Origin: Thermoanaerobaculia bacterium
GTDB lineage: Bacteria; Acidobacteriota; Thermoanaerobaculia; UBA5066; DATFVB01
Length of the DNA: 57,039 bases
Direction of reading: 5' to 3'
Assembly (NCBI GenBank): GCA_035260525.1
Contig: DATFVB010000156.1
Coordinates: 1-57,039 of the forward strand
Shown: one piece after another, positions 29,885 through 51,528 of the stretch
Layout of the letters: every line of letters starts with the position of its first letter
Position numbering within the stretch: position 1 is the stretch's first letter
The notes under the pieces: generated by a model
What the model was told of the DNA's origin: nothing
The model's database searches: none
Seen by the model: the letters and a program-made list of their open reading frames with translations, nothing else
Translations under genes and position numbers: made by a program

Positions 29885-30526
29885 ATGGGACGCCGGGCGA
29901 GAGTCACGCGAGCGCAGGTGCTGGCGGCGGCGCGGGAAGCGTTCGCCGAGGGGGGATTCGACGGGACGACGCTCGCCGCGATCGCCGCGCGGCTCGGGCT
30001 CAGTCCCGCCGCGCTGCTTCGCCACGCTCCGACGAAGGAGGCGCTGTTCGGAGCGGCGATGGCGGCGGGCGGTCCCGCCATGTCCGTCCCGCTCGACTTT
30101 CTCGGCGCCCTCGACGGGAGCGAGGACCCGATCGCAGTGCTGCGTCAGATCGCCGAACGGGTGATTCCCGTCCTCGAGGCGACGTTTGCCGAGACGATCG
30201 TCGGCTGGCTTCACGCCCGGAAGAAAGCCGGGCCCGTCGCCATGCCGCTTCCGTTCGACCCGCGCCTTCGCTCCTCGCCGCCGCAGCTGGCGTTTCGCGC
30301 GATCGAGGCGTATCTCCGGAAGGCGGTGCGGAAGGGACGCCTCCGCGTCGCCGATCCCCGGGCCGCGGCGACCGCGTTCCAGGGCGCCCTCTTCGCTTAC
30401 GTCGCGTTCCACAAGCTCTTCCGCATCCTCGACCCGCCGCTGCCGCTCGACCGGTACCTCGCGACGGTCCTCGAGATCTGGGCGCATGGCGCCGCCCCGC
30501 CCGCGCCGAAAGGGAGGCGCCGATGA
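29885..30526 (+). CDS. TetR-family transcriptional regulator
   Basis: The HTH is 'FDGTTLAAIAARLGLSPAALLRHAPTKEALF'. 213 aa. Confidence 0.88.
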   Translation: MGRRARVTRAQVLAAAREAFAEGGFDGTTLAAIAARLGLSPAALLRHAPTKEALFGAAMAAGGPAMSVPLDFLGALDGSEDPIAVLRQIAERVIPVLEATFAETIVGWLHARKKAGPVAMPLPFDPRLRSSPPQLAFRAIEAYLRKAVRKGRLRVADPRAAATAFQGALFAYVAFHKLFRILDPPLPLDRYLATVLEIWAHGAAPPAPKGRRR

Positions 30527-31455: not shown

Positions 31456-32450
31456 CGGGGAACGGGGACCTCGGCATCGAGGTTCGAAGCGTGACGCGCG
31501 ACTTCGGTCCGGTGCGCGCGCTCGACTCGGTCTCGCTGTCGATCTCGCGGGGGGAGATCTTCGGGCTCCTCGGCCCGAACGGATCCGGCAAGTCCACGCT
31601 CATCCGGATTCTCTGCGGCCTGCTCGTCCCGACCGCCGGCGCGGCTTTCGTCGACGGCCTCGACGTCTCGACCTCGGGCGAGGAGGTGCGCCGCCGGATC
31701 GGCTACGTTCCGCAGCGGTTCTCCCTCTACGAGGACCTGACGGTGCTCGAGAACCTCGACTTCTTCGCGTCGGTGTACGGCCTCGAAGGAGAAAAGGCGA
31801 AGGAGCGCCGGCAATGGGCAATCGACCTCACCGGGATCGGCCCGTACCGCGAGCGCCTGGCGGCGCAGCTCTCGGGCGGATGGAAGCAGCGACTCGCGCT
31901 CGCCGCCTCGCTCATGCACGATCCTCGCGTCCTCTTCCTCGACGAGCCGACGGCGGGGATCGATCCGGTCGCGCGGCGCGAGCTGTGGAACCTCCTGTTC
32001 GAGCTCGCGGGCCGCGGGACGACGGTCCTCGTCGCCACCCACTACATGGACGAGGCGGAGCGATGCGGCACGGTCGCGTACCTGTACCTCTCGAAGCTGC
32101 TCGTCTACGGCAAGCCCGACGAGCTCACGCGGTTGCCCGAGGTCACGCCGGGAGGGATGCGGCGGATCGAGGCCGCGTGCGATCAGGGGGTCGCGACCTT
32201 GATGGGCCACGCCCGGACGCTGCCGTACGTCGAGGACGTGACGATCTTCGGCAATTCGCTGCACCTCCTCGTGCGCGCCGGCCGGGATGACGCGGCGATC
32301 GCCCGCGATCTCGAGAGGGAGACCGGCTCGCGGGTCGTGGTTCGCCCGATCGAGGCCGCGCTCGAGGACGTCTTCGTGCGGCTGACGAAGATCCACGCCG
32401 GGCGAAACGGAGCTCCGGTTTCCCCGGCGGGCCCGGGAGGGAATCCATGA
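31452..32450 (+). CDS. ABC-2-type transporter ATP-binding protein
   Basis: There is a GTGA overlap with the upstream gene. Motifs are 'GPNGSGKST', 'LSGGWKQRL' and 'VLFLDEPTAGIDP'. Confidence 0.9.
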   Translation: MTGNGDLGIEVRSVTRDFGPVRALDSVSLSISRGEIFGLLGPNGSGKSTLIRILCGLLVPTAGAAFVDGLDVSTSGEEVRRRIGYVPQRFSLYEDLTVLENLDFFASVYGLEGEKAKERRQWAIDLTGIGPYRERLAAQLSGGWKQRLALAASLMHDPRVLFLDEPTAGIDPVARRELWNLLFELAGRGTTVLVATHYMDEAERCGTVAYLYLSKLLVYGKPDELTRLPEVTPGGMRRIEAACDQGVATLMGHARTLPYVEDVTIFGNSLHLLVRAGRDDAAIARDLERETGSRVVVRPIEAALEDVFVRLTKIHAGRNGAPVSPAGPGGNP

Positions 32451-33553
32451 GGGGCCTCCGTGCGGTTCTCCGCAAGGAATGGACCCAGATGTTCCGGGAT
32501 CAATGGACCCTCCGGATGGCGTTCGTGATCCCCATCCTGGAGCTCGTGCTCTTCGGCCTGATCGACACCAACGTGCATCACGTTCCGACTGCCGTCTTCG
32601 ATCAGAGCCGGACGCCGGAGAGCCGCCAGCTGGTGCAGGACCTGGTGAACACGGGCTACTTCGAGATCCGCTCCCTTCCCGGCTCCGCGGAGGACGTTCG
32701 GCGGGAGATCGTCGCGGGAAAGACCTCGGTGGGAGTCCTGATCCCGCCCGATTTCGCGCGGCGCCGCTTGAACGGCGAGCCGGCCGATTTCCAGGTCCTG
32801 ATCGACGGCTCCGACTCGACGATCTCGTCGCAGACGCTCGCGGCGGCGAGCGGCGTGGCGTTCCAGCGCTCGCTCGAGGAGATCGCCGCCCGCGCGCACG
32901 TCACCGACCTGCCCTTGCGGCTCCACCCGCTCCTGCTCTTCAATCCCGACTCGCGAAGCGCGAATCTCCTGATCCCCGGGCTGATCGCCATCCTGCTGAC
33001 GTTCTCGGCGACGTTTCTCGCCGCGTTCGGGATCGTCAAGGAACGCGAGCGGGGAACCCTCGAGCAGCTGATGGTCACCCCGGTCTCGCCGGCCGCCGTC
33101 GTGATCGGAAAGCTCCTTCCGTACCTGGCGCTCGCCTTCGCCCAGCTGATCGTGATCCTGATCCTGATGGCGACGCTCTTCCGTGTGCCCATCCACGGCA
33201 GCGTTGCGCTCCTCTTCGGACTTTCGACGATCTATCTCTTCTCGCTCCTCGCGCTCGGGCTCCTCGTGTCGTCGCGGGCGAAGACGCAGATGGAGGCGAT
33301 CCAGCGGGCGCAGGTCATTCTGCTTCCGTCCTTTCTCCTCTCCGGCTACTTCTTCCCGATTTCGTCTCTTCCCGCCTGGCTGCGGCCCATGGCCTACGTG
33401 CTGCCCGCGACGTACTACATCAAGATCGCCCGGGGCATCATCATCCGCGGCGCGGGGTTCGTCGACCTCTGGCCGAGCGTGGCGGCGCTCGTGGCGATTT
33501 CCGCGATACTCGTCGCGGCGAGCACGCGGGCTTTCAAGAAGACGATCGGCTAG
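32447..33553 (+). CDS. ABC-2-type transporter permease
   Basis: 368 aa with an ATGA overlap. It has an N-terminal TM helix, a large periplasmic loop and then 5 TM helices. Confidence 0.85.
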   Translation: MRGLRAVLRKEWTQMFRDQWTLRMAFVIPILELVLFGLIDTNVHHVPTAVFDQSRTPESRQLVQDLVNTGYFEIRSLPGSAEDVRREIVAGKTSVGVLIPPDFARRRLNGEPADFQVLIDGSDSTISSQTLAAASGVAFQRSLEEIAARAHVTDLPLRLHPLLLFNPDSRSANLLIPGLIAILLTFSATFLAAFGIVKERERGTLEQLMVTPVSPAAVVIGKLLPYLALAFAQLIVILILMATLFRVPIHGSVALLFGLSTIYLFSLLALGLLVSSRAKTQMEAIQRAQVILLPSFLLSGYFFPISSLPAWLRPMAYVLPATYYIKIARGIIIRGAGFVDLWPSVAALVAISAILVAASTRAFKKTIG

Positions 33554-33573: not shown

Positions 33574-35448
33574 ATGTGCGGGATCGCCGGCCTCGTGGAT
33601 CTCGACGGCGTCCCGCCGGACCGCCCTCTCCTGCTGTCGATGATGCGGCGGATCGCGCATCGCGGCCCCGACGGCGGAGGCTGGATGGAAGACACGGCGG
33701 GGTCGATTCTCGAGGGCGGCCGCGAGTCGTCGGTTCCCGCCTCCGGACGGCGCTTCGCGCCCCGCCGGCCCGGCGCCTCCGCGGCGCTCGGCCATCAGCG
33801 CCTCGCGATCACCGATCTCTCGGAGGCGGGCCGGCAGCCGATGTCCCGCGGCGACGGGCGGTGGTGGATCGTCTTCAACGGCGCGATCTTCAACGCGCCC
33901 GAGCTCCGGCGGGAGCTCGAGGAGGCGGGCGAGCGCTTCACCAGCGCGACGGACACGGAGGTCCTCCTCGCCGCGTGGATCCGGTGGGGCGCCGCGGCGC
34001 TCGACCGGTTCAACGGGATGTGGGCCTTCGCGATCTGGGACGCGCGGGATCGCGAGCTCGTCTGCGCGCGCGACCGGTACGGGATCAAGCCGTTCTATTG
34101 GACGACCGCGGGGGACGTCTTCGCGTTCGGATCGGAGCCGAAGGCGCTCCGGCCCGTTCGCCCGGCGGCGCCCGACCTGAAGCTGGTGGCGGACTATCTC
34201 GCCTGGGGGTCGAGTATCCCCGGGGGCGACGCCACCGGCTACGACGGCTACCACGAGCTTCCGGCGGGCTCGATGCTCCGCACGGACGCGTCGGGCATCC
34301 GGGTGGAGACATGGTACGACCTCGACGAGCGGGTCCGCGACGCTCCGCCCGCGCCGCCGTTCGAGGAAGCCGCCGCGCGACTGCGGGAGCTCCTCGACGA
34401 CGCGATCCGGATCCGCCTCCGGGCCGACGTCCCCGTCGGACTCCTGCTTTCGGGCGGCGTCGATTCCTCCGGGATCGCCGGCATCCTCGCGGCACGTCAC
34501 CGCGGCGCGTTCTCGGGTCCGGCGATATCGCTCCGCTATCGGCGGAAGGAGATCGACGAAAGCCGCTACTCGGACGCGGTTCTCCGTGCGACGGGGATTC
34601 CGGGCGTATACGTCGAACCGACGCCCGAGAGCTTCGATCGAAACCTCGACGAATACATGGCGAGAACCGGCCACCTGACCATGGGCTCGGTCGGGTACGC
34701 CCAGTACCTTCTGTACGCGCGGGCGCGCGCCGTCGGGCTTCCGGTGATCCTGGTAGGGCAGGGATCCGACGAGCTCTTCGGCGGCTACGAGCCCTGGGAC
34801 GTGCACGTGACGCAGCTCTGGAACCGGGGACGGAAGTGGACGGCCGTCCGCGAGGGCCTCCTCTCCGGGCGGCGTCAGTGGGGATGGCCGATCGGGATCC
34901 GGCATACCGTCGGCGTCCTGCGGACGGCCCGGCGGCCCCCGCGATGCCGGTGCGACCGCGCCGGGACGCTCCAGGATCACCAGCGGCACTTGCTGCTCCT
35001 CGACTACCTGCCCGCGATCCTCGAGGGCGAGGATCGCAACTCGATGGCCTCCGCCGTCGAGTCGCGGCTGCCTTTCCTCGATCATCGGATCGTCGAATTC
35101 GCGCGAACCCTTCCCCCGGATTACCTCTGCCGCGGCGGCTGGACGAAGGCCGTGCTTCGCCGCGCGCTCGACGGACTCGTTCCGGAATACGTGCTCCGGC
35201 GGCCGCGCAAGCTCGGTCTCCCCGGCCCGCTCGCGGGGCTGGCCTGCCCGCCGGAGGCCGACGCCGCGCGCCGGCGCCTCATCGAAGGCGGGTGGTTCCC
35301 GGCATCCCTCGTCGGCGAGGCCGGCTCCGCGCTCTCCGCCGCCGGGCAGATGCGCCTTCGCCTTCTCGACGCCTGGGCCCGAAGCTGCCTCGACCGGCCC
35401 GCGGTCAGCCCGGCGCCGCCGGAGGAGTCCCGCGCCACCGTTGCGTGA
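33574..35448 (+). CDS. asnB: Asparagine synthetase B-type glutamine amidotransferase (class II GATase + PP-loop synthetase)
   Basis: 'MCGIAG' provides the Cys2 nucleophile. Also present are 'HRGPDG', 'NGAIFN', the PP-loop 'LLLSGGVDSS' and 'EDRNSMA...ESRLPFLD'. It starts 20 nt after the permease gene, and its 3' end overlaps array paralog 1 by 44 bp. Confidence 0.88.
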   Translation: MCGIAGLVDLDGVPPDRPLLLSMMRRIAHRGPDGGGWMEDTAGSILEGGRESSVPASGRRFAPRRPGASAALGHQRLAITDLSEAGRQPMSRGDGRWWIVFNGAIFNAPELRRELEEAGERFTSATDTEVLLAAWIRWGAAALDRFNGMWAFAIWDARDRELVCARDRYGIKPFYWTTAGDVFAFGSEPKALRPVRPAAPDLKLVADYLAWGSSIPGGDATGYDGYHELPAGSMLRTDASGIRVETWYDLDERVRDAPPAPPFEEAAARLRELLDDAIRIRLRADVPVGLLLSGGVDSSGIAGILAARHRGAFSGPAISLRYRRKEIDESRYSDAVLRATGIPGVYVEPTPESFDRNLDEYMARTGHLTMGSVGYAQYLLYARARAVGLPVILVGQGSDELFGGYEPWDVHVTQLWNRGRKWTAVREGLLSGRRQWGWPIGIRHTVGVLRTARRPPRCRCDRAGTLQDHQRHLLLLDYLPAILEGEDRNSMASAVESRLPFLDHRIVEFARTLPPDYLCRGGWTKAVLRRALDGLVPEYVLRRPRKLGLPGPLAGLACPPEADAARRRLIEGGWFPASLVGEAGSALSAAGQMRLRLLDAWARSCLDRPAVSPAPPEESRATVA

Positions 35449-36670
35449 CCCGCTGGAGCGTGCCGCCGAGGAGCCCGCGGTCGAGGCGGCGGAGCTTCCC
35501 CTTCCAGCCCGCGTCGCGGTGCCACCGTTCGATCCGGCGCGCCTCGGCGATCTTTGCGCGCACTGCCGCCGCGATCCGGCCGGCGCCCCCCCGTTCGAGA
35601 AGCGGGACGAGCGGAGCCCAGTAGAGCGCGAAGTTCTCCGGTGAGTATCCGAACGTCATCGACTCGATCGCCTCGGGCGTGACCCGCCGGCCGCCGAAAG
35701 CGGCGAAATCGTCGAGAACGCCGAGCGCGGCGAGGGCGGTCATCGTGCGGAGGCACTTCTCGCAGCGCCCGCAGTTCGACTCGCCGTCCGGCAGCGGTCC
35801 CTCGAAGCACACCTGGAGGTGCCGGCGCGCGACGTCCCACCCGGCGATCTCCGCGATCTTCTCCGAGCGGCCCGGGCGGAACTCCTCGTGCCGTATTTCG
35901 ACGCCGGAGCTCGAGAAGAGAGGGTCGAGCAGCGGATGGGTCCCCCAACGGTGGAGCGCGCCCGCGTCGAGCGTCGCCGCGATCGACGCCGAGCCGATCC
36001 GTTGCGCGAAGGCGTGGGCGGCCGAAGCGAGGAGCGCGCCCTGGTCCTGGGGGCCGGCCAGCACGACGCCGCCCAAAATGCGGAAGTTGCCGTCGATCTC
36101 CACGACTTCGAGGTCGTTCCGGGCGGCGATCTCCGCGACGGCCTTCGCGTGGCGGCGGGCGAGATCGCCGGCGCGGGGTGTGGGCACCTCTTCGGCAAAC
36201 GACATGCTCCGAATGGAAATCGCGTCGCGGAAGGACGCCGGGTGCCCGGCGGGGAAGGCCTGCCGGTTCTTCCGGAGCAGATGAAGGGAATCGACTCCGC
36301 CGGTCAGGAACAGGGCCGACCGTTCTCGCCGCCCGGCGAACGGACGAAAACCGTCCGACGGCTCCAGGGCCGCCGGAGGGCGGTCGCGCTTCCACCATGC
36401 GGAGAGGAGCCGCTGGACGGCTGCGATCCCGTCTCGGAGGCGCGGACAGACCGCTCCCTCGACCGCGATCCGCCGTTCTCCGGAGCGCCAGGCGGGGACG
36501 ACCGAGGCGAGCAGGAAAGGGTGCGGGTCGGCTCCGAGTACGTCGGCCCCCGTTCCGCGGGAGGTGAACGTCAGCTCGAAGGGAGGGCGGCCGGATTCTT
36601 CCCATTCGACCCGTGCGGAGAGCGCGACGCGGTCCCCGTTCCGCGCGAGGGAAACGCCGCCGATCCTCAT
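35405..36670 (-). CDS. Tandem-array paralog 1 of 10 (last transcribed): PP-loop / QueC-like four-Cys protein, function unknown
   Basis: 421 aa. Motifs are 'GERRIAVEGAVCPRL', 'FLTGGVDSL', 'WGTHPLLDP', 'VCFEGPLPDGESNCGRCEKC' and the tail 'AGWKGKLRRLDRGLLGG'. The ATG at 36668-36670 overlaps the stop of paralog 2. Confidence 0.85.
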   Translation of the reverse strand: MRIGGVSLARNGDRVALSARVEWEESGRPPFELTFTSRGTGADVLGADPHPFLLASVVPAWRSGERRIAVEGAVCPRLRDGIAAVQRLLSAWWKRDRPPAALEPSDGFRPFAGRRERSALFLTGGVDSLHLLRKNRQAFPAGHPASFRDAISIRSMSFAEEVPTPRAGDLARRHAKAVAEIAARNDLEVVEIDGNFRILGGVVLAGPQDQGALLASAAHAFAQRIGSASIAATLDAGALHRWGTHPLLDPLFSSSGVEIRHEEFRPGRSEKIAEIAGWDVARRHLQVCFEGPLPDGESNCGRCEKCLRTMTALAALGVLDDFAAFGGRRVTPEAIESMTFGYSPENFALYWAPLVPLLERGGAGRIAAAVRAKIAEARRIERWHRDAGWKGKLRRLDRGLLGGTLQRVTQRWRGTPPAAPG

Positions 36671-37905
36671 GTCGCCCTTGCCACCGCGCGGCGGATCGCG
36701 AGGAGACGTCCGCCGAGGAGCCGGCGGTCGGCGCGGCGGAGCAGGCCCTTCCATCCCGCGTCCTCGAACCACCGCGCCTGCCGTGCGGCGACGGCGAGCC
36801 GGCGCTCCACCGCACCGGCGAGGTCGTCGCGGCGGCCGCGGAGGAGCGGAAGGAGATCGCGCCAGTAGGGGGCGTAATGCGGACCGAAGTCGAAGGCCCC
36901 GACCGTCCGCGCGAGATCGAGGGCCGGGAACTCGCGCGCCTCCTCGAGACGTCCGAAAGCGGCGAGCGCGGTCATGGTGCGGAGGCACTTCTCGCAGCGG
37001 CCGCAGTTGAGGAGCGGCGGCGGGGGCCCGCTCATGCAGACGAGGAGCCGCGAAACGGCGCCTCCCGCAGCGCAGAGCTCGGCGATCCGGTCGGGCCGGG
37101 AGATTCCGATTCCCTCGTGGCGGACCGCAACGGCGGCGCTTCCGAGAGCGGCGTCGATCAGGGGATGCGTCCCGAGCGGGACGAGAATCGTCACATCGCG
37201 CCCGGAGGCGAGCGTCGCCGAGCTCCATCGGGACGGGAAGAGGTGCGCGGCGGACGCGAGCACGGACGAAAGCGAACGTTTCGCGATGAACTCGATTTCC
37301 GGCGCGAGCGCCGTGACGTTCGTCGCGACCGACACGAGCGCGAGACCCGATTCCGCGGCGGTCTCCTCCAACACGGCCCGGGTGCGGGCGTAACCGGCGA
37401 ACGGCTCCGCCGGGTCGAGCTGGTCCGGCGCGTAGAGGCCGAAGACGGCGAGCGCGTCGGTAAACGATTCGGGATGGTCGCGGGGGAAGTCGGCGCGGTT
37501 GCGACGCAGCAGGTGCGTCGAGTCGACACCCCCCGTCAGGAAGACCGCCGCCCGCGGCGGGCGGCGGGGAAAGGCGGCGCAAAACCCTTCGCGCGCCTCG
37601 ATCCGGGGCGGCTCCGAAGACGTCCCGCGCCACCCGTCGAAGACGCGCGCGATCGTGAGGAGTCCTTCGGCGAGCCGCGGGCAGACCGGTCCCTCGAGCG
37701 CGACTCGGCGCTCCCCGCTCGAGGCCGCCGGAAGGAATGCCGCCGCGAGGACCGCGTCGGACGAGGCGGCGAGATCGGCCGCAGCGGCGCCTTCGACTTC
37801 CCACCAGACGTCGAGGGGCGGACGCCCGCTTTCCTCCCAGAGGACGCGGGCGGCGACGCGGGCGCCCGCGCGGGTCGGCTCCCGACGAAGGTCGACGATC
37901 CTCAT
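36667..37905 (-). CDS. Tandem-array paralog 2 of 10
   Basis: 412 aa. Motifs are 'GERRVALEGPVCPRL', 'FLTGGVDST', 'LGTHPLIDA', 'VCMSGPPPPLLNCGRCEKC' and 'AGWKGLLRRADRRLLGG'. There are ATGA overlaps at both ends. Confidence 0.85.
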   Translation of the reverse strand: MRIVDLRREPTRAGARVAARVLWEESGRPPLDVWWEVEGAAAADLAASSDAVLAAAFLPAASSGERRVALEGPVCPRLAEGLLTIARVFDGWRGTSSEPPRIEAREGFCAAFPRRPPRAAVFLTGGVDSTHLLRRNRADFPRDHPESFTDALAVFGLYAPDQLDPAEPFAGYARTRAVLEETAAESGLALVSVATNVTALAPEIEFIAKRSLSSVLASAAHLFPSRWSSATLASGRDVTILVPLGTHPLIDAALGSAAVAVRHEGIGISRPDRIAELCAAGGAVSRLLVCMSGPPPPLLNCGRCEKCLRTMTALAAFGRLEEAREFPALDLARTVGAFDFGPHYAPYWRDLLPLLRGRRDDLAGAVERRLAVAARQARWFEDAGWKGLLRRADRRLLGGRLLAIRRAVARAT

Positions 37906-39149
37906 CGCGCCCCTCGGGCGATCCGCCGCCGGAACGCGAGCGCGCGCCCGCCGAGCCACCGCCGGTCGAGACGCCGAAGCAGGCCGGTCCATCCGCGATC
38001 CCGCTCCCACTCCTCCGCGCGGCGGTTGGCCTCGAGCCTCTCGTCGATGGCATCGGCGAGGTCGGGGCGCCCCGCGCGGCGCGCCCCGGAAGCCATCGGT
38101 TCCCAGTAGTAGTCGAGACGGCGGTACGATGGGACGCCGGGGAGGCTCCGGATCGCATCGGCCGTGACGTCGCGCGGGAACGTCTCGGACTCCGCGAGCG
38201 CGCCGGCGACGAGGAGCTCCACCATCGTTCGCAGGCACTTCTCGCAGCGACCGCAATTGAGCAACGGGTCGCCGGGAAGCGGGAAGCTGCAGGTATAGAG
38301 GTGGCGGCGGCCGGGCTCGGATCCTCCCACCCGGGCCGCCTTTTCTTCGCGCTTTATGCCGATCCCGTCGTGGACGAAGCGCACGGCCGACGTTCCGAAG
38401 AGCGGGTCGAGCAGGGGGTGCGATCCCCAGGGATGGAGACCCGACATGACGTCGTCGGACGCCGCGAGGGCGACGGTCGAGACTCGTCCGGAGAGGAGCT
38501 GCGCGATTGCGGCGAAGAACGAGCCGTGCGACTCGAGTGCGAACGAGCGAAGGCTTCCCTGGAGCCCGAGCAGGTTCGTGGAGACCACCGTCAACGGCAG
38601 CCCGGCTTCGGCCGCGGTCGCCCGGACCGCGCGTTCCGATCGCGCGCCCGTCTCGGCGAGCTGCGGTTCGTCCGGAAAAAGGCCGCAACGCGTGACGAAG
38701 ATGGCGCGCCGGACCGCGGCCGGGTGCTCCCGCGGTAAGCCGGCTCCTCGCGAGAGGAGGAGGTCCAGGGAGTCGAGCCCGCCGCTGAGGAAGATCGCTT
38801 CCCCTCCGGCGGCGGGAGGATAACCCGCGCGAAATCCTTCGGAGGGCTCGAGCGCCGGCATCCGGCGGTCGCCGCCGTACCAGCTCCCGAGGACCGCCGC
38901 CGCGGCGCGGAGCCCGTCGCGGAGGACGGGGCAGATCGCCCCTTCCACGGCGATGCGGCGCTCTCCATCGCGGAGGGCGGCGACGAACACCGCGATCAGG
39001 AACGCGTTCGGGTCGGCGGCGGGGACGTCGCCGGAAAGGAACGAGAAATGGAGGTCGAACGGCGGGCGGCCGGCGTCCTCCCACTCGACGCGCGCCTCGA
39101 TCGTGTCTTCCCCGGCGGTCCCGGTGCGGCGAATCGCCCCGATCTTCAT
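37902..39149 (-). CDS. Tandem-array paralog 3 of 10
   Basis: 415 aa. Motifs are 'GERRIAVEGAICPVL', 'FLSGGLDSL', 'WGSHPLLDP', 'TCSFPLPGDPLLNCGRCEKC' and 'RGWTGLLRRLDRRWLGG'. Confidence 0.85.
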   Translation of the reverse strand: MKIGAIRRTGTAGEDTIEARVEWEDAGRPPFDLHFSFLSGDVPAADPNAFLIAVFVAALRDGERRIAVEGAICPVLRDGLRAAAAVLGSWYGGDRRMPALEPSEGFRAGYPPAAGGEAIFLSGGLDSLDLLLSRGAGLPREHPAAVRRAIFVTRCGLFPDEPQLAETGARSERAVRATAAEAGLPLTVVSTNLLGLQGSLRSFALESHGSFFAAIAQLLSGRVSTVALAASDDVMSGLHPWGSHPLLDPLFGTSAVRFVHDGIGIKREEKAARVGGSEPGRRHLYTCSFPLPGDPLLNCGRCEKCLRTMVELLVAGALAESETFPRDVTADAIRSLPGVPSYRRLDYYWEPMASGARRAGRPDLADAIDERLEANRRAEEWERDRGWTGLLRRLDRRWLGGRALAFRRRIARGAR

Positions 39150-40396
39150 CGCGGCCGTCGCGCCCGCCGGGCCCGGCGGAGCGCGCCGCCGAGCCACCGC
39201 TCGTCGGTGCGCCGCAGCGCTCCCTTCCACCCCTGGGCCCGGAACCAGCGGTCGTGCGCCTCCTGGCGGGCGATCAGCCGTCCGATCGCGGCGGCGAGGT
39301 CCCGGCGGCCCGCGTCGCGCGCAGCGGGGGCGAGCTCGTCCCAGTAATAGCTCATGATCCGGAACCCTTCGAGAGGCGCGATCGCATCGATCGTCTCGGC
39401 CGAAACGCGTCCCGGGGGAAACGTCGGCGGTTCCTCGATTCCGGCGCCGACGAGGAGCGAGACGCGGGTCCGCACGCACTTCTCACAGGCTCCGCAGTTC
39501 GCCGTCTCGCCGGGGAGGGGGCCCTGGCCGCACACGTAGAGCGACGCGAGAGCCGCCGGCCATCGGGCGATCGCCGCCGTCTTCCGGAGGCGCGACGATT
39601 CGATTCCCCGGTGGTGGACGGCGACGGCGGCGGTGCCGAAGTTCGGGTCGATGAGCGGGTGCGATCCCCAGGCCCGGAGGCCCTGAACCAGGTCGTGCGA
39701 AGCGCTGATCGTCACGTCGGTCAGATCCCGCCCGGCGGCTATTCCGGCGGCCGCGAGCAGCGAACCGTGCGTCCACCGCATATGGCCCTCGGCCTCCGGC
39801 TCCAGAACGGCGGCGTTCGTGGAGACTTCCGATCGTTCCAGGCCGGCGGCGTCTGCGATCGCCCAGACCGAGCGAGAGCTGCGGGCTTCGACGTGCGCGC
39901 GGCGTTCCGGAGAGGAGTCGACCGGAAAAATGAAGTCGCCCAGGCGGACCGCCTCGCGAAACGAGAGCGGGTGGTCGACCGGAAGATCGCGACGGTTCCG
40001 GAGGATCTCGAAGGTCGAGTCGATCCCCCCCGAAGCGAGAATCGCCGCGCGGCGGCGCGCCGCCGGACGCGGAGGAACGAAACCGCCCGCCGGCTCGATC
40101 GCGGGCGTCGGCCCGGGATGCCGATGCCACGCGCCGAGGAGCGCGGCGGCCGCGGCGATCCCGTCGCGCAACCGCGGGCAGACGCTTCCCTCGACCGCGA
40201 TCCGCCGTTCTCCCCGGCGGTACGCCGGCATCGCCGCCGCGGCGACGAACGCATTCGCGTCGACTTCGCGCCCCGACGGCCCGGCGACGTCGAAAAAGAC
40301 GACGAACGCGGGCCGGTCCGCCTCTTCCCAGACGATCGTCGCCTCGGTCCGCACGCGCCCGGCGGCGGAGGCCGTCCGAAATCCTTCGATCCTCAC
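39146..40396 (-). CDS. Tandem-array paralog 4 of 10
   Basis: 416 aa, an exact ORF in the track. Motifs are 'GERRIAVEGSVCPRL', 'LASGGIDST', 'WGSHPLIDP', 'VCGQGPLPGETANCGACEKC' and 'QGWKGALRRTDERWLGG'. Confidence 0.88.
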   Translation of the reverse strand: MRIEGFRTASAAGRVRTEATIVWEEADRPAFVVFFDVAGPSGREVDANAFVAAAAMPAYRRGERRIAVEGSVCPRLRDGIAAAAALLGAWHRHPGPTPAIEPAGGFVPPRPAARRRAAILASGGIDSTFEILRNRRDLPVDHPLSFREAVRLGDFIFPVDSSPERRAHVEARSSRSVWAIADAAGLERSEVSTNAAVLEPEAEGHMRWTHGSLLAAAGIAAGRDLTDVTISASHDLVQGLRAWGSHPLIDPNFGTAAVAVHHRGIESSRLRKTAAIARWPAALASLYVCGQGPLPGETANCGACEKCVRTRVSLLVGAGIEEPPTFPPGRVSAETIDAIAPLEGFRIMSYYWDELAPAARDAGRRDLAAAIGRLIARQEAHDRWFRAQGWKGALRRTDERWLGGALRRARRARRPR

Positions 40397-41631
40397 GCGA
40401 AGAGCCTGCGGTAGAGCTTTTTGATCCGGCCGCCGAGGACGTCGCGGTCGAAACGCCGGATCGCGCCGGTCCAGTCGACGCCTTCCACCCGCTGCCGGTG
40501 GTGGATTGTCGCGCGGATCTTCCGCTCGATCGCGGAGGCGAGGTCACCGCGTCCGCGCGCGCGGATCGGGTCGACGAGCGTTCCCCAGAAATATTCCGTT
40601 CCGTTGTCGAACTCGAGACCGCGGATCGTCTCCGCGGTCACGCGCACGGACGGGAAGGACCGCGCGTGCTCGAGCACGCCGCTCGCTTCCATCTCGACGA
40701 GCGTCCGAACGCACTTGGTGCACCGGCCGCAGTTGATCGACGCGCCGGCGGGAGCGTTGCCGCAGCAGATCAGCCGCGCGAGCGCGGCGGTCCGTTCTCG
40801 GAGGCGTGCGACCTTCTCGACGCGGCGGAGCCCGAGCGCCTCGTGCCGGATCGCCAGCGCCGCGCTTCCGTAGCTCGGGTCGAGGAGCGGGTGGCTTCCC
40901 CACGGCACGAGGTGCTCGCCGGGCCACGAGGAGCCGAGGGCGACGGTGCTGAAGCGTCCGGCCAGCAGGTGCGCGCCCGATAGGAGCGCGGCTCCGAGAA
41001 AGCGGTGGGCGAAGAACGCGAGATCGTCGTCCAGGCGCCGCAGGTTCGTCGTGATCGGCGCGAGCCTCACGCCGACGTCGGCCGCGATCTCGCGGAGCGG
41101 GATCTCGAGGCGGGCGTACTGCGAGACGGCCCACGGCGACTCCTCCGCTCCCGGGTAGTCGAGCCCCCGGATCCACAGCGCGTGCGAGAAGCGAGCAGGA
41201 TGGCCGGCCGGGAAGTCCTCCCGGTTGGAATAGAAGAGGTGGAGGGAGTCGATGCCGCCGGTCAGGTAACCCGCGGAGGCCGGCTCGGCGCGCGGAGTCG
41301 CCGCCCTCCATGCGTCGCGGGGCTCGATGCGGGGGACCGGCCCCGTGGCCGGGTGCCAGGACCGGATCACTCCCCCGACGGCCTCGAGGCCCGCCGCGAG
41401 GAGCGGACACACCGCGCCTTCGACGGCGATCCGCCGTTCCCCGTGGCGCAGCGCCGGCACGAACGCGGCGGCGACGAACGCGTTCGGGTCCGGGAAGGCG
41501 TCGGCCGCGAGGTCCTCGTCGAGGTCCCACCAGATCTCGACGGGCGGGCGGTGCGAGTCCTCCCAGACGACGGTCGCCGCGAAACGCGTCCCGAAGGTCC
41601 CCGGTCCCGTCCGGATCCCGCCGATCCTCAT
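40393..41631 (-). CDS. Tandem-array paralog 5 of 10
   Basis: 412 aa. Motifs are 'GERRIAVEGAVCPLL', 'YLTGGIDSL', 'WGSHPLLDP', 'CCGNAPAGASINCGRCTKC' and 'VDWTGAIRRFDRDVLGG'. Confidence 0.85.
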   Translation of the reverse strand: MRIGGIRTGPGTFGTRFAATVVWEDSHRPPVEIWWDLDEDLAADAFPDPNAFVAAAFVPALRHGERRIAVEGAVCPLLAAGLEAVGGVIRSWHPATGPVPRIEPRDAWRAATPRAEPASAGYLTGGIDSLHLFYSNREDFPAGHPARFSHALWIRGLDYPGAEESPWAVSQYARLEIPLREIAADVGVRLAPITTNLRRLDDDLAFFAHRFLGAALLSGAHLLAGRFSTVALGSSWPGEHLVPWGSHPLLDPSYGSAALAIRHEALGLRRVEKVARLRERTAALARLICCGNAPAGASINCGRCTKCVRTLVEMEASGVLEHARSFPSVRVTAETIRGLEFDNGTEYFWGTLVDPIRARGRGDLASAIERKIRATIHHRQRVEGVDWTGAIRRFDRDVLGGRIKKLYRRLFA

Positions 41632-42884
41632 GCGGACCGCCGGCTCCGCAGGCGCCGACTCGACTGGAGGAGCGCCGACCCGAGGAAACGGCGGTCGAGT
41701 CGGCGAAGCATTCCCTTCCAGCCGCGGTGAAAGCGCCACGCGTCGGCGACGTGCGCCCGGGAGACGAGCTCCTCGGCTGCCGACGCGAGCTCGCTTTGAC
41801 CTCGCGCGCGAAACGACTCCACGATCTCGCTCCAGAAATCGGCGACCGCCCACGGGTGAAGGCCGGTGCTCAGTTTCCGCAGGAGCGCGGGCGTGAGGTC
41901 GGTCTCGTCGAAGCTCGCCGCCCGGGCCGCCGTCGGCCCGAGCGCGGCGAGGGTCCGCACGCACTTCTCGCATCGTCCGCAGTTGAGCGAACCGGAGCCG
42001 AGGGGCCCGCGGGTACAGACCATCAGCGAAGCGAGGGCCTCCGGCCAGGCGGCGATCCGGCCGGCTTTCCCGATCCGCGGCGTCTCGATCCCCTCGTGGA
42101 ACACCGCCAGCGCGCTTCCGGAATAGAGCGGATCGAGAACGGGATGCGAGCCCCAGGCACGCAGGTTCGCGGCGTCGAGACCGGCCGCGATCGTCGCGGA
42201 GGAGATCCGACGCGAGAGGAGGTGTGCGACGGACGAAAGCATCGCGGCGTGATACTTCGCGCAGAAGAAGCCGATGTCGTCCTCGAGCACGCGCAGGTTC
42301 GTGCGAACGAAGATCGGATGGAGATCCGCGGCCGCGGCGAAGGCCGTCGTTGCTTTCTGCGTGCGGCGCCAGTAATCGCGCGCCCGCGGCGAGTCGTCCG
42401 TCGGCTCGAAGATGTACCCCTCCAGGACGACCGCGTCGCGCAACGACGCGGGGTGCTCGCGGGGATAGCGGTCGCGGTTGTGCGCGACCGCGAAAAGCGA
42501 ATCGAGGCCGCCGGAGAGGAAGACTCCGGCTCGGGGGACCGGCGGCGGGAACCGCGGCGCCGTGCCGCGAGAGGACTCGATGACGGGCGCGGGAAGAGCG
42601 GCGGAGAACCAGCGAGCGAGGAGCCTCGCCGCCGCCGCGAGCCCTTCGGCGAGCCTCGGGCAGAGCGTCCCCTCGACGATAAGGCGACGCTCTCCGTGGT
42701 GCTGCGCGACGACGGCCGCCGCGACGGCGAAACCGTCGAGCTCTTCCGTGAGCGCGGGACCGAGCGCCGGCGCGACCTCGGCCCAGATTTTCCGCGGGCG
42801 CCGATCGGAGTCCTCCCACGCGATCGTCGCGGCCACGCGGACCGCGTCGGCCGTCTCCTCGCGCCGGAGGTCGAATAGCCTCAT
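41628..42884 (-). CDS. Tandem-array paralog 6 of 10
   Basis: 418 aa. Motifs are 'GERRLIVEGTLCPRL', 'FLSGGLDSL', 'WGSHPVLDP', 'VCTRGPLGSGSLNCGRCEKC' and 'RGWKGMLRRLDRRFLGS'. Confidence 0.85.
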   Translation of the reverse strand: MRLFDLRREETADAVRVAATIAWEDSDRRPRKIWAEVAPALGPALTEELDGFAVAAAVVAQHHGERRLIVEGTLCPRLAEGLAAAARLLARWFSAALPAPVIESSRGTAPRFPPPVPRAGVFLSGGLDSLFAVAHNRDRYPREHPASLRDAVVLEGYIFEPTDDSPRARDYWRRTQKATTAFAAAADLHPIFVRTNLRVLEDDIGFFCAKYHAAMLSSVAHLLSRRISSATIAAGLDAANLRAWGSHPVLDPLYSGSALAVFHEGIETPRIGKAGRIAAWPEALASLMVCTRGPLGSGSLNCGRCEKCVRTLAALGPTAARAASFDETDLTPALLRKLSTGLHPWAVADFWSEIVESFRARGQSELASAAEELVSRAHVADAWRFHRGWKGMLRRLDRRFLGSALLQSSRRLRSRRSA

Positions 42885-44131
42885 GGGCGCGCGCCCGTCA
42901 GGAGGAGTCTTCGGGCGCGGAGGAGCCGCCCGCCGAAGAGTTTCCGATCGGTCCGGCGAAGGACGCCGCGCCACCCCGCGTCCGCGTGCCAGCGCCGAAC
43001 GGCCCGCGCCCGCACCCCGCGGCGCTCGACGGCGCGCGCGAGGTCCGCGCGTCCGCGCCGTCTCAGGGGCTCGACGAGCGGCAGCCAGAAGAACTCGAGG
43101 TCGGGAGCAACGGCGGCCGACTCGACGGCGGCCGGGGAGAGCTCCACCGCGAAGGACCCGGCGCCGGCCGGCGCGCCCGCGGCCGCGAGCTCGGTCATCG
43201 TCCGCACGCACTTCTCGCACCGCCCGCAGTTGAGCGCCGGCCCCGGCAGCGGTCCTTCGTGGCAGACGAGGAGGCGGGGGAGGAGCTCCGGCCGCGCCGC
43301 GATCGCCTCGATCTTCTCCAGACGCGTGCGGTCCGCGCCCTCGTGCCGGATCTCGAGCGCGCCGGAGGAAAAGAGCGGGTCGAGGAGCGGATGCGAACCG
43401 GCGGGGGTGAGCATCGCCGGGATTTCGTGCCCGGACGCGAGCGCGACCGACGTCCAGCGCGACGAGAAGAGGTGGGCCATCGACGCGTAAGCCGCGGCGA
43501 AGTATTCGCGGCCGGAGAACGCGACGTTCGATTCGACGGCGAGGAGATTCGTGTCGACCCGGGTCAACGGGACCTCGAGTGCGGCGGCGAGCGCCGTGGA
43601 GGCGCGGGCCGCCCGGTCGCGGAGATCGCGATCGGCGGACGAGCCGGGCGGATGGACGTAAGGAAAGCCCGAGACGTGGAGCGCGTCCCGGATCGAGGCC
43701 GGATGGTTCGCGTCGAACCGCGAACGGTTTCGGAGGAGAACGTCGAGGGAGTCCGCGCCCCCGGACAGGAAGCACGCCGCCCGCGGCGGGGGCGGGGCGG
43801 GCGCGCGGAATCCCTCGGAGGGCTCGATCCCCGGGAGCGTCCGCGGCTCTTCGTACCACGATTGGACCAGACCGGCCGCCGCCTCGAGCCCGTCGCGGAG
43901 GCGCGGGCAGACGGCTCCGTCGATCGCGACGCGGCGTTCGCCGTGGCGCATCGCCGGGAACGCGGCGGCCAGGAGAAAGGCGTTGGCGTCCGGCTGGAGC
44001 GATTCCGCCGCTTCCCCCTCCGCCGCGTAGACGATCTCGACGGGAATCCGGCCGGAATCCTCCCAGATCACCGTCGCGCCGACCTCGACGCGGGCGCCCG
44101 CCCGGGTGCGCCGGAGCCGCTCGATCCTCAA
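42881..44131 (-). CDS. Tandem-array paralog 7 of 10 (TTG start)
   Basis: 416 aa. The TTG at 44129-44131 overlaps the stop of paralog 8 (TTGA) and aligns with the M-R-I start of its siblings. Motifs are 'GERRVAIDGAVCPRL', 'FLSGGADSL', 'AGSHPLLDP', 'VCHEGPLPGPALNCGRCEKC' and 'AGWRGVLRRTDRKLFGG'. Confidence 0.8.
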   Translation of the reverse strand: MRIERLRRTRAGARVEVGATVIWEDSGRIPVEIVYAAEGEAAESLQPDANAFLLAAAFPAMRHGERRVAIDGAVCPRLRDGLEAAAGLVQSWYEEPRTLPGIEPSEGFRAPAPPPPRAACFLSGGADSLDVLLRNRSRFDANHPASIRDALHVSGFPYVHPPGSSADRDLRDRAARASTALAAALEVPLTRVDTNLLAVESNVAFSGREYFAAAYASMAHLFSSRWTSVALASGHEIPAMLTPAGSHPLLDPLFSSGALEIRHEGADRTRLEKIEAIAARPELLPRLLVCHEGPLPGPALNCGRCEKCVRTMTELAAAGAPAGAGSFAVELSPAAVESAAVAPDLEFFWLPLVEPLRRRGRADLARAVERRGVRARAVRRWHADAGWRGVLRRTDRKLFGGRLLRARRLLLTGARP

Positions 44132-45378
44132 CTCGCCGGCCCCGGGCGAAGCAAACGGCGCGCGTCGAGCAGCGCCGATCGGAAATGCTTTCGATCCAGG
44201 CGGCGAAGCCGGCCTTTCCATCCCGCGTCGCGAGTCCACGCCCGGACCCGGTCCATCTGCGCGATCTTCTCCGCGATCGCACTCGCGAGGTCGGACCGCC
44301 CGGCCCGGCGGAGCCGCTCCGGAAGCGGGCGCCAGAAGAAGGCCGTGTGAGGATCCGCGCGGAGCGCCCGGATCGACTCCGCGGTGAGGCAACCTTCCGG
44401 GAACGCATTCGCGGGCGCTCCCGCGAGGAGGAGCTCGATCTGGCTGTGCAGGCATTTCTCGCACCGGCCGCAGTTGGCGCCCGGCGCATCGAGGGGCGTG
44501 GTCAGGCAGACGTGGAGGTGGGGGAGGAGATCGGGGCGCCGCGCGAGCGACGCCGCCTTCTCGATCCGTCCCCGGTCCGCTCCCGCGTGCCGGAACCGCA
44601 GCGCGCCCGTCGAGAAGAGCGGGTCGAGCAGCGGGTGCGACCCGAGCGGGTCGAGCCTCACGCCGAGCTGCTGCGCCGACGCGTAGGAAACCTCCGTGAG
44701 CCGGCGCGAGAACAGATGCGCGACCGCGGCGTAGGCGCTGCCGAACCATTCCTGGCGGAAAAAAAGGAAGTCGCGGTCCAGCTCGCCCAGGTTCGTGCGC
44801 ACGAGCGACAGCGGCGCGTCGAGCCGGCGGGCGAGCGCGGCGGCCGCCGTGCGACCGCGCGACACGAAGCTCTCGCTCGAAGGCGATCCGGGCGGCCCCG
44901 TCCAGGGAAGGCCGGAGACGTGCAGCGCGTCCTCGAAGCGAGCGGGATGTCCCGGGGGGAAGTAGGCGCGGTTGCGCACGAAGACGTCGAGGGAATCCAT
45001 TCCGCCCGACAGGAACGCCGCGGCGCGCGGGACCGGCGCCGGAGCCGGGGAAATGAATCCTTCCGCCGGCTCGATCGCGGGAAGCGTCCGGGGAGCGCCG
45101 TACCACGATTTCAGGACCGTGGCGGCGGCGCGAAGCCCGTCGCGCAGCGCGGGGCACACCGTCCCTTCGACGGCGATCCGCCGCTCGCCGTGCCGCATCG
45201 CCGGAAACGCCGCGGCGAGGAGCATCGCGTCGGGATCGGCGCGGAGCGACGACGCCGCGGCGCCGCGCGCCTCGAAGAAGAGGTCGAAAGGCTCGCGGGC
45301 CGCGTCTTCCCATCGAATTCGTGCGGACGCGCGCGCGCCGTCTCCCGTCACGCGGCAGTCGAGAGCGTCGATCCTCAT
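44128..45378 (-). CDS. Tandem-array paralog 8 of 10
   Basis: 416 aa. Motifs are 'GERRIAVEGTVCPAL', 'FLSGGMDSL', 'LGSHPLLDP', 'VCLTTPLDAPGANCGRCEKC' and 'AGWKGRLRRLDRKHFRS'. Confidence 0.85.
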   Translation of the reverse strand: MRIDALDCRVTGDGARASARIRWEDAAREPFDLFFEARGAAASSLRADPDAMLLAAAFPAMRHGERRIAVEGTVCPALRDGLRAAATVLKSWYGAPRTLPAIEPAEGFISPAPAPVPRAAAFLSGGMDSLDVFVRNRAYFPPGHPARFEDALHVSGLPWTGPPGSPSSESFVSRGRTAAAALARRLDAPLSLVRTNLGELDRDFLFFRQEWFGSAYAAVAHLFSRRLTEVSYASAQQLGVRLDPLGSHPLLDPLFSTGALRFRHAGADRGRIEKAASLARRPDLLPHLHVCLTTPLDAPGANCGRCEKCLHSQIELLLAGAPANAFPEGCLTAESIRALRADPHTAFFWRPLPERLRRAGRSDLASAIAEKIAQMDRVRAWTRDAGWKGRLRRLDRKHFRSALLDARRLLRPGPAS

Positions 45379-46628
45379 GGCGCTCCGGCCCGCCGGACGG
45401 CGCGCGCCGCCGCGGCGAGGCTTCCGTGGAGGAACATCCGATCGAAGCGCTTGACGAGGCCCTTCCAGTCCTCCTCGTCGCGCCATCGGCGGAAACGACG
45501 CGCGGCGTCGAGCTTCTCCTCGACGATCGCCGCGAGATCGTCTCGTCCCGCCCGGCGAAGAGGAACGACGAGCTCCTCCCAGAACTCCTCGAATCCGGTC
45601 GTCCACTCGAGCGCGCGGAGGGCTTCGGGCGAGACGTCGCTCTCGGAAAACGTTTCGGCTTCCGCGAGCCGGCCGAGAACGAGGAGTCCCACCGCTGTCC
45701 GCAGGCACTTTTCGCAGGCGCCGCAGTTGAGGCGCTCCCGCGGCGGCGGCCGCCAGTTGCACGTCTGGAGGCGCCGCAGCCCCTCCGGCCATTCCGCGAC
45801 GACGGCGAGCTTCTCGAGCCGCGTGCGGCCCGCGCCGTCGTGCCGGATCGCGAGCGCGGAGCTCGCGTAGTTCGGGTCGAGCAGCGGGTGCGATGCGCAC
45901 GGGAGGAGATGGCCGAGGTCGTAGGAGGAGGGAATCGACAGCGCCGATATCCGCGCGGTCAACGCGTGTCCCGCCGCGGCGAGCGCGGCGCCGAAGAAGT
46001 CGTGGATGTAGAAGTCGAGGTCGTCGTCGAGCTCGCGCAGGTTGAAGCGCATCGGGACGAGGTCGATCCCGCACTCGCGCGCGAGCCCCGACAGCGACGC
46101 GACGCGCCGGTCGAAGCGCTCGAACTCGAGCGGGCTCGAGTCGGGGAGCCCGAAGTCGTGTCCGAGGATCAGGATCCCGTCGCGGATCGACGCCGGGTGC
46201 TCCCGCGGGATCTCGAGGAGGTTCATCCGGAGCGTGAAGAGCGAGTCGACGCCGCCCGAGAAGAACGCGGCGGCGCGCGGAGGGTTCCGCCGCGGCGGCG
46301 GGCGGAAGCCCTCGGACGCTTCGATCGCGATCTCGGGACGGGGGGCCCCCCTCCACGAGGCGAGAACCGTGAGCGCCCCGCGGAGCCCCTCGCGCAGCTC
46401 GGGACAGACGGCGCCTTCGACCCGGATCCGCCGCTCTCCGTGGCGCGCCGCGGGAACGATGCATCCCGTGACGAACGCGTCGGGGCTGGGCGAGAGCGCG
46501 TCGGCGAGGCCTTCGTCGGTCTCGAAGCAGACCGTCCGGGAGGGGCGGTCGGCGTCCTCCCAGACCACGTCCGCGGCCACCCTCGCCCGCCCGTTCGACC
46601 GCTCGCGTCGGAGAGCGGAGATCCTCAT
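45375..46628 (-). CDS. Tandem-array paralog 9 of 10
   Basis: 417 aa. Motifs are 'GERRIRVEGAVCPEL', 'FFSGGVDSL', 'CASHPLLDP', 'TCNWRPPPRERLNCGACEKC' and 'EDWKGLVKRFDRMFLHG'. Confidence 0.85.
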   Translation of the reverse strand: MRISALRRERSNGRARVAADVVWEDADRPSRTVCFETDEGLADALSPSPDAFVTGCIVPAARHGERRIRVEGAVCPELREGLRGALTVLASWRGAPRPEIAIEASEGFRPPPRRNPPRAAAFFSGGVDSLFTLRMNLLEIPREHPASIRDGILILGHDFGLPDSSPLEFERFDRRVASLSGLARECGIDLVPMRFNLRELDDDLDFYIHDFFGAALAAAGHALTARISALSIPSSYDLGHLLPCASHPLLDPNYASSALAIRHDGAGRTRLEKLAVVAEWPEGLRRLQTCNWRPPPRERLNCGACEKCLRTAVGLLVLGRLAEAETFSESDVSPEALRALEWTTGFEEFWEELVVPLRRAGRDDLAAIVEEKLDAARRFRRWRDEEDWKGLVKRFDRMFLHGSLAAAARAVRRAGAP

Positions 46629-51368: not shown

Positions 51369-51424
51369 CGGCCTTCCACGATCACGTCCCGAGTCTGGCG
51401 GGTCGGCAAGATCCTGTTGTCACC

Positions 51425-51478: not shown

Positions 51479-51528
51479 GAAGTCTCCCAAGTAGTTCCGA
51501 ACGACACGCGATTTCTCAGGCCGCTCCG

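Follow-up and report, generated by a model that had tools for sequence, protein, structure and literature searches.

Ten Tandem Paralogs with a Predicted PP-Loop Core and a QueC-Type Cysteine Motif in a Thermoanaerobaculia Genome

Introduction

N-acetyl-sugar amidotransferases (TIGR03573; WbuX, PseA and LfnA) are PP-loop enzymes of O-antigen and nonulosonic-acid clusters, and together with a separate glutamine amidotransferase they introduce nitrogen at an activated carbonyl. ATP-dependent carboxylate-to-amide-to-nitrile and amide-to-nitrile reactions are carried out by QueC/ToyM and ArtA/NitB, and an asparagine synthetase (AS)-like enzyme, PesC, forms a C-terminal nitrile in a peptide that is made by the ribosome and modified after translation (RiPP) (PMC13060819). 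Here we describe an array of ten tandem genes whose products resemble QueC. The array (35405-47884, minus strand) lies in a 57,039-nt stretch of DNA from a Thermoanaerobaculia bacterium (assembly GCA_035260525.1, contig DATFVB010000156.1, forward strand), which was analysed as a whole and is called the window below. Its G+C content is about 70%.

A first-pass annotation, made from the DNA letters alone, had divided the product of one of these genes, paralog 4, into an N-terminal domain that could not be placed, a PP-loop/QueC-like core and a helical basic tail. Our analysis supports a core with the PP-loop ATP pyrophosphatase fold and a QueC-type four-Cys module, as predicted from structural models and profile alignments. 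A family without a Pfam or NCBIfam model, a solved structure or a literature of its own thereby gains a testable biochemical hypothesis.

Results

Motifs shared by the ten paralogs

Paralog 4 (39146-40396, minus strand) is an intact open reading frame (ORF) of 416 aa with a GTG start. A tblastn search of the window with this protein returned ten full-length copies, all on the minus strand, which are 37-42% identical to paralog 4 (E values of 1e-56 to 3e-73). Pairwise identity among the ten paralogs is 33-50%. All ten ORFs are intact, encode 412-421 aa and start with ATG, GTG or TTG. The motifs (S/T)GGxDS and C-x11-C-x2-C-x2-C are kept in all ten copies in a ten-way alignment, which confirms the first-pass annotation of ten paralogs with a PP-loop motif and a Cys motif.

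The PP-loop motif ILASGGIDST of paralog 4 was located at residues 119-128 (40013-40042, minus strand). The Cys motif VC-x11-NCGACEKCVRT covers residues 288-310 (39467-39535, minus strand). The gap between the two, first put at about 190 residues, measured about 165-180. The replacement of Ser by Thr at the first motif position, reported for copies 1, 2 and 5, is exact. Residues G123, G124, D126, S127, C289, C301, C304 and C307 are invariant in the ten copies, in line with the earlier statement that every copy keeps the four Cys and GGxDS. The same holds for W23-E24, G62-E63-R64-R65, C73-P74, N194, H246-P247, D250, H262, R269 and K306; GGxDS, K272, the four Cys and about 45 further positions are the same in all ten. 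In 120 distant relatives from many phyla, the four Cys and G124 do not vary either.

The most variable positions are residues 151-170 (mean column identity 0.16) and 311-350 (0.10-0.32), which agrees with the variable stretches that had been noted before the 'TNL' block and after the Cys motif. Two further variable patches, residues 31-40 and 201-210, are present in the ten-way alignment.

Fold of the core and the QueC-type cysteine site

None of the ten paralogs scored above threshold in Pfam or NCBIfam, and no QueC match was obtained at E up to 1. A sequence-profile search of the Protein Data Bank (PDB) gave only noise. The full-length AlphaFold model of paralog 4 has a mean predicted local distance difference test (pLDDT) score of 88.9 and a predicted template modelling (pTM) score of 0.87. 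It places SGGIDS between a strand (residues 117-121) and a helix (residues 125-137). A Foldseek search of the PDB with the full-length model found no significant match, and residues 106-330 were therefore modelled alone (pLDDT 79).

With this core model, all 50 of the 50 best PDB matches are PP-loop ATP pyrophosphatases. Four of them have E ≤1e-3, with a probability of 1.00 for the best; the significance is modest. The top match is MnmA (E 2.9e-4). QueC (PDB 3bl5; E 3.3e-4) has the best TM-scores (0.51/0.57) over 220 columns, and the nitrile synthetase ArtA (PDB 9lei) is third, with E 5.9e-4 and TM-scores of 0.36/0.24. TtuA, the NAD synthetase NadE, the asparagine synthetase AsnS, LarE, YcfA, TilS, GMP synthetase, the carbapenam and beta-lactam synthetases and the sulfurtransferase 5ztb are among the further matches. 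When the full model was compared with the viral structures of BFVD, the two best matches were phage 7-cyano-7-deazaguanine synthases (E 5.2e-4 and 1.9e-3), and ThiI and TilS were also found. The combined check proposed earlier, profile scans together with AlphaFold and Foldseek, thus came out in two ways: the core structure is of the PP-loop kind, and the Pfam and PDB sequence scans gave no match above threshold. Placement of the core in another fold, named at the outset as the outcome that would speak against the assignment, was not seen in the structure search.

Weaker sequence signals point to QueC. When the 120 relatives were scanned singly against Pfam, only DUF6395 (31 relatives) and QueC (15 relatives) recurred, both weakly; every other family appeared in one or two of the 120, including weak Asn_synthase matches in two. 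The QueC matches are all below threshold (best E 0.0022), and the single match whose position was shown, that of relative P0110, falls on the region of the Cys motif. We then aligned the family profile with a QueC profile of 13 sequences, composed of E. coli QueC (which matches PDB 2pg3 with E 5e-130), two QueCs from the PDB and ten annotated phage QueCs. The hhalign probability is 86-91%, with E of about 1e-6; with a thin profile of three QueC sequences it had been 20-24%, and it rose when the ten phage QueCs were added. In this alignment K272 falls on the conserved Lys of QueC, and C289, C301, C304 and C307 fall on its four zinc-binding Cys. At a relaxed threshold the alignment runs collinearly from the PP-loop through to QueC's C-terminal end (paralog 4 residues 114-333 against QueC residues 1-231). 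The QueC-like Cys site of the first-pass annotation thus gains support from the profile alignment, the 3bl5 superposition, the BFVD matches and the sub-threshold Pfam matches. We regard the fold and the class of chemistry as highly probable.

The array proteins are not QueC themselves; the relation is one of resemblance and not of membership. Their scores stay below the curated thresholds, they are almost twice the size of QueC and no deazaguanine genes lie nearby.

Domain architecture

Three regions are distinguished in paralog 4, all on the minus strand. The N-terminal domain (residues 1-105; 40082-40396) is a beta/alpha unit with invariant WE, GERR and CP. It had been called unplaceable, and this stands: it has no match in Pfam, NCBIfam, the PDB profile library or the full-model Foldseek search of the PDB. 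The domain is found only in this family. It is followed by the PP-loop/QueC-like core (residues 106-330; 39407-40081) and by a helical C-terminal region (residues 331-416; 39149-39406). The last 36 residues of paralog 4 hold 13 K/R against 3 D/E, and those of the ten copies hold 8-13 K/R against 1-5 D/E and are predicted to be helical, so the helical basic tail was described correctly. This tail is missing from about 44 of the 118 family genes in the fetched loci, which marks it as an accessory module.

Layout and expression of the array

In transcription order the array consists of paralogs 10 (46625-47884, TTG start), 9 (45375-46628), 8 (44128-45378), 7 (42881-44131), 6 (41628-42884), 5 (40393-41631), 4 (the seventh gene), 3 (37902-39149), 2 (36667-37905) and 1 (35405-36670). 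The start of each gene overlaps the stop of the preceding one by 4 nt across the array. These overlaps indicate co-expression, and the ten paralogs are probably translationally coupled. A consensus scan for promoters and terminators inside the array gave nothing above chance expectation.

A promoter-like element, TTGACA-N18-TAAGCT (47921-47950, minus strand), lies upstream of paralog 10. The form TTGAC-N17/18-TAAGCT is conserved in four genomes, and on the basis of this conservation the element is likely to be a dedicated promoter of the array; it is not among the hits of a stricter consensus scan. No small ORF or precursor peptide in the 260-nt gap ahead of paralog 10 is conserved across the four genomes. 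An Rfam scan found no riboswitch near the array, the one riboswitch of the window being far away.

Evolution of the array

The closest relatives of the window are metagenome-assembled genomes (MAGs) labelled Acidobacteriota or Thermoanaerobaculia. Copy numbers at the same place in related Acidobacteriota genomes are 7, 7, 8 and 10. The first eight genes of the window, in transcription order, are collinear one-to-one with the eight genes of locus L009 at 72-86% identity, and the last two (paralogs 2 and 1) are extra; neither has an ortholog in the seven- or eight-gene arrays. A separate ortholog of paralog 7 is absent from the two seven-gene arrays (L005 and L010). The dN/dS ratio is 0.15-0.29 in all eight ortholog pairs. 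Judged from these alignments, the copies read as old, non-redundant paralogs under purifying selection.

Blocks 31-40, 151-170, 201-210 and 341-350 are 10-21% identical between paralogs and 74-84% between orthologs. Blocks that vary between paralogs and are conserved between orthologs behave like specificity determinants, unlike unconstrained loops, and the proposal that the variable stretches are specificity loops gains support.

A different picture is seen in two further MAGs (loci L013 and L015). Between these loci and the window, identity is 73-91% for the flanking adaptor, permeases, ATPase and ABC-2 permease and 60-61% for AsnB (described below). No array gene of either locus (L013:846-9572 and L015:6203-16251) is more than 44% identical to any paralog of the window, yet the two arrays are orthologous to each other at 81-90%. 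At least two types of array therefore occur between conserved flanks. By these comparisons the array appears hypervariable, as is seen at hypervariable surface-antigen loci. It is unusual for biosynthetic enzymes that 7-10 old paralogs keep a fixed order and yet the set differs in a related lineage. Arrays of fixed order that are swapped between lineages suggest combinatorial, strain-specific chemistry.

The counterparts of paralogs 8 and 7 (42881-45378 in the window) are merged into one 830-aa ORF at L003:5024-7516. The merger stems from an indel near position 6094 of L001, in one metagenome sample, and is either a strain variant or an assembly error.

Genes flanking the array

A gene for an AsnB-type glutamine-hydrolysing amidotransferase (33574-35448, plus strand, 624 aa) is convergent to the array, and its 3' end overlaps that of paralog 1 by 44 nt. 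The protein has the N-terminus MCGIAG, with Cys2 as the nucleophile, and the motif LLLSGGVDSS. It scores 377.9 bits against TIGR01536 (cutoff 267.1) and does not reach the cutoffs for lasso cyclase, PEP-CTERM amidotransferase or AsnB proper. An assignment as lasso-peptide cyclase was rejected, since the score of 252 bits falls short of the cutoff of 525 and neither a B-protein nor a precursor is present. The convergent AsnB is found in every Acidobacteriota locus that covers that end of the array, and it stays beside the array even where the genes beyond it differ.

A MacA/MacB-type efflux operon (48144-52731, minus strand) lies directly upstream of the array on the same strand. It encodes an adaptor (51529-52731), two permeases (50145-51419 and 48874-50148) and an ATPase (48144-48881). 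All Acidobacteriota arrays keep this layout, with the exporter on one side and AsnB on the other. AsnB and the transporter are putative partners of the array.

Three efflux systems surround the array and AsnB: an adaptor-MacB-OEP set (25424-29413), a TetR-HlyD-ABC-ABC2 set (29885-33553) and the adaptor-MacB-MacB-ATPase operon described above. Some related genomes lack the TetR/ABC-2 unit or have it in decayed form, and AsnB and the array are still adjacent there.

The wider family

A profile search of 1.84 billion cluster representatives (clusters at 50% identity) found 9129 family proteins with E ≤1e-3, of which 4079 have E ≤1e-30; full-length matches make up almost all of the top 150. A search of GTDB species genomes with the alignment of the ten paralogs gave at least 543 confirmed loci. 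Among the loci listed are members from Acidobacteriota, Desulfobacterota, Chloroflexota, Planctomycetota, Verrucomicrobiota, Nitrospirota, Actinomycetota, Cyanobacteria, Gemmatimonadota, Myxococcota, Armatimonadota and Proteobacteria, and also two cultured carriers, Mesorhizobium sp. M00.F.Ca.ET.216.01.1.1 and Dethiosulfatarculus sandiegensis SPR. The proteins are annotated as 'hypothetical protein' in their sources. Outside the Acidobacteriota arrays the family is usually present as a single copy or as 2-3 copies.

Family members are fused to polysaccharide pyruvyl transferase (three proteins), family-2 glycosyltransferase, sulfotransferase and GNAT domains. In a set of 36 diverse loci, the genes directly beside the family member encode, among others, RimK-type ATP-grasp ligases (7), GMC oxidoreductases (4), PGA_cap (3), ABC transporters, Polysacc_synt and GT1 proteins. 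The second and third neighbours add ABC-2/Wzm-type (Wzm/Wzt) transporters, GT2 proteins, FGE-sulfatase-like proteins and ferredoxins. Two distant members lie inside O-antigen-like clusters. One of the two, a relative of 32% identity in a nucleotide-sugar cluster, is immediately preceded by an AsnB-type gene on the same strand and immediately followed by a GMC oxidoreductase gene. Surface polymers, together with enzymes that make or link carboxylates, are the theme that recurs most in these contexts, although the contexts are mixed.

In Desulfobacterales (L051:9065-11128 and L057:8715-12399; similar in L041, L046, L072 and L085), a short member without the tail directly follows a RimK-type ATP-grasp ligase. 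In L051 and L057 the member is followed by a HAMP-adenylate cyclase, in one of them with a radical S-adenosylmethionine (SAM) protein in between. This arrangement looks like a distinct conserved operon. The wider family also holds two-module fusion proteins, for example P0069 (719 aa) and P0129 (799 aa).

Discussion

Proposed chemistry

We propose that the array encodes QueC-like enzymes that would act on a carboxylate-rich envelope or exported substrate, each paralog at a site of its own, and we give this explanation as a whole a probability of roughly 0.6. By analogy with QueC, ArtA, AsnB and TilS, (S/T)GGxDS would bind Mg-ATP. A carboxylate or carboxamide oxygen of the substrate would then attack the alpha-phosphate to give an acyl- or imidoyl-adenylate and pyrophosphate. 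Displacement of AMP by a nitrogen nucleophile would lead to an amide or amidine; alternatively, AMP could be eliminated and an amide converted to a nitrile. The four-Cys knuckle presumably binds zinc. The paralog-specific loops most likely send each copy to a different site or variant of one carboxylate-rich substrate, and AsnB probably shares this substrate and could, for instance, form the first amide.

The substrate may be a cell-envelope glycan, another anionic polymer or an exported metabolite, a choice that draws on the fusions and neighbours of the family and on the basic tail. Of the parts of the proposal this is the tentative one: for a carboxylate-rich envelope polymer or exported molecule as the class of substrate, we put the odds somewhat below even. 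A further extension would make the locus a strain-variable modification cassette, in which 7-10 adenylating enzymes and one AsnB act on numerous different carboxylates of one envelope polymer or exported molecule and so set a lineage-specific pattern of amides, amidines or nitriles, with whole sets swapped between lineages, as at O-antigen loci. We consider this extension doubtful. If true, it would define an enzyme family of more than 9000 sequence clusters for the post-assembly editing of carboxylates on surface polymers. Amidation or nitrile formation, if true, would bear on the envelope diversity of abundant uncultured soil bacteria, and the small set of known ATP-dependent nitrile- and amide-forming enzymes would be extended.

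Several observations weigh against this proposal. The statistical links to known PP-loop enzymes are all modest (Foldseek E of about 3e-4); the full-length model has no significant match in the PDB, and the sequence matches in Pfam, NCBIfam and the PDB all stay below threshold. The four Cys could hold an Fe-S cluster instead of zinc. AsnB is absent within 10 kb of nearly all members outside Acidobacteriota, and the AsnB of the window could simply be a housekeeping asparagine synthetase. The window is without glycan-synthesis genes, the neighbours of the array being efflux pumps and housekeeping genes. The family contexts also include FGE-sulfatase, radical SAM, ferredoxin and adenylate cyclase genes.

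Alternative explanations

The array could instead form a peptide or natural-product pathway with AsnB and the MacB-type exporter. Its products and AsnB would then amidate carboxylates at the side chains or C-terminus of an exported peptide or small molecule, or turn these carboxylates into nitriles. There is precedent for such chemistry in the C-terminal nitrile formed by an AS-like enzyme in a RiPP and in the amide dehydration by ArtA/NitB (PMC13060819). ArtA is the third PDB match of the core model, the exporter-array-AsnB layout is common to all Acidobacteriota arrays, and the ATPase of the MacB-type exporter shows a below-cutoff likeness to that of the darobactin exporter (222 of the required 375 bits). 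Against this, the only sizeable intergenic gap holds no conserved precursor-peptide ORF, and no protease, leader-binding domain, non-ribosomal peptide synthetase or polyketide synthase was found in the window. The promoter-like element separates the array from the exporter operon, and the wider family points to polymers and not to peptides. We consider this pathway unlikely.

Sulfur insertion of the TtuA, LarE, YcfA or MnmA kind would give the Cys motif another role: it would hold a [4Fe-4S] cluster or a persulfide, and a substrate oxygen would be replaced by sulfur. The four invariant Cys would suit this role, MnmA is the top PDB match, TtuA (an Fe-S enzyme), LarE, 5ztb and YcfA are among the best, and a gene for a rhodanese-domain protein is present in the window (19726-21246). 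The Cys motif, however, aligns specifically to the zinc site of QueC (86-91%), and QueC also gives the best TM-scores and the best BFVD match. Four ligands in the pattern C-x(n)-C-x2-C-x2-C differ from the Fe-S pattern of three Cys, the array has no linked gene for a cysteine desulfurase or sulfur carrier, and the conserved partner is a glutamine amidotransferase, which speaks for nitrogen chemistry. Sulfur insertion is, in our judgement, quite unlikely.

If the proteins modified RNA in the manner of TilS, MnmA or ThiI, each paralog would have its own RNA or position, with the basic tail as the part that binds tRNA or rRNA. MnmA and TilS among the PDB matches, ThiI and TilS among the BFVD matches and the strongly basic, helical tail fit such a role. 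The tail is, however, missing from over a third of the family genes in the fetched loci, and scans of Pfam and NCBIfam detected no THUMP, PUA or TilS C-terminal domain. The fusion partners modify glycans and are not RNA enzymes. The whole array is replaced in a related lineage whose flanks are 73-91% identical, unlike conserved translation machinery. This makes RNA modification very unlikely.

That the proteins are no enzymes at all, and serve as structural, scaffolding or decoy proteins with an ancestral nucleotide-binding fold or are redundant, drifting duplicates, is the least credible alternative: activity is known for no family member, the paralogs are very divergent (33-50% identity), the content of the array turns over between lineages and a strain-variant indel fuses two copies, but GGxDS, K272, the four Cys and some 45 other positions are invariant in the ten copies, the Cys and the PP-loop glycine are so in 120 relatives across many phyla, and gene order is conserved with dN/dS of 0.15-0.29 in every ortholog pair.

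Other genes of the window

The remaining genes are housekeeping genes and further efflux pumps. A SAM riboswitch (RF00162; 816-930, plus strand, 76.9 bits) lies directly upstream of a gene for a fused homocysteine S-methyltransferase/methylenetetrahydrofolate reductase (991-2871), and a B12-dependent methionine synthase follows at about 2901-6611. At 10706-16036 lies an iron cluster. Its genes encode an FTR1/FtrD-like permease (14174-15469), a pair of MacB-like permeases, an ABC ATPase joined to the C-terminal domain of an iron-dependent repressor (10706-11788) and a divergent Fur-family regulator (15524-16036). The gene for a MauE/DoxX-CusF-SCO1 fusion (18428-19756, minus strand) adjoins that of the rhodanese-domain protein (19726-21246, minus strand). 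With the Cu/Zn superoxide dismutase at 21818-22384, these genes look like a copper/redox island.

Comparison with known systems

A search of the literature on QueC-like proteins with polysaccharides and on tandem PP-loop paralogs found nothing relevant. The most frequent weak Pfam match is DUF6395 (PF19932), found in 3 of the 10 paralogs and 31 of the 120 relatives. The match takes in only some 35 positions of the model's 174 and falls on the residues immediately ahead of the Cys motif. The two scores shown, 22.4 and 17.4 bits, stay under the gathering cutoff of 25 bits, and the lowest E among the 120 is 8.4e-4. A literature search found no mention of DUF6395. The QueC-like defence proteins QatC (Qat) and Cap9 (CBASS) were considered and rejected: PADLOC gave one unrelated weak match (E 0.017) in one of the ten copies. 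No QatABD, TGT or OGG-like partner genes were seen in the window.

The array proteins resemble QueC/ToyM (PF06508) in having SGGxDS at the start of the core, followed by a conserved Lys-helix and C-x(n)-C-x2-C-x2-C. QueC is a single domain of about 220-230 aa, whereas the array proteins have 412-421 aa, which include the additional 105-aa N-terminal domain and a helical region of 85 aa at the C-terminus. Between the first two Cys lie 11 residues in the array proteins and 8 in the QueCs of E. coli and B. subtilis. The array proteins occur in arrays of 7-10 copies, unlike QueC. No folE, queD, queE, queF, tgt or dpd gene is among the Pfam-annotated genes of the window, whereas phage queC genes taken as controls adjoin queD, queE or tgt.

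AsnB-type enzymes and the beta-lactam and carbapenam synthetases share the PP-loop fold, are among the Foldseek matches and use acyl-adenylate chemistry. The array proteins are without a glutaminase domain, and the AsnB-type enzymes are without the Cys4 motif. ArtA/NitB also has a PP-loop, and ArtA acts on an amide that another enzyme, such as the AsnB partner, could supply; the TM-score is low, and the array is without the context of a polyketide or amino-acid pathway.

The N-acetyl-sugar amidotransferases of TIGR03573 differ in that their Cys-rich element is N-terminal and their partner is of the HisH/HisF type, whereas the partner of the array is of the AsnB type. The ten paralogs and three distant relatives match neither TIGR03573 nor any other NCBIfam model at E up to 1. 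The logic of a PP-loop protein with an amidotransferase partner in glycan clusters resembles that of the array family and AsnB.

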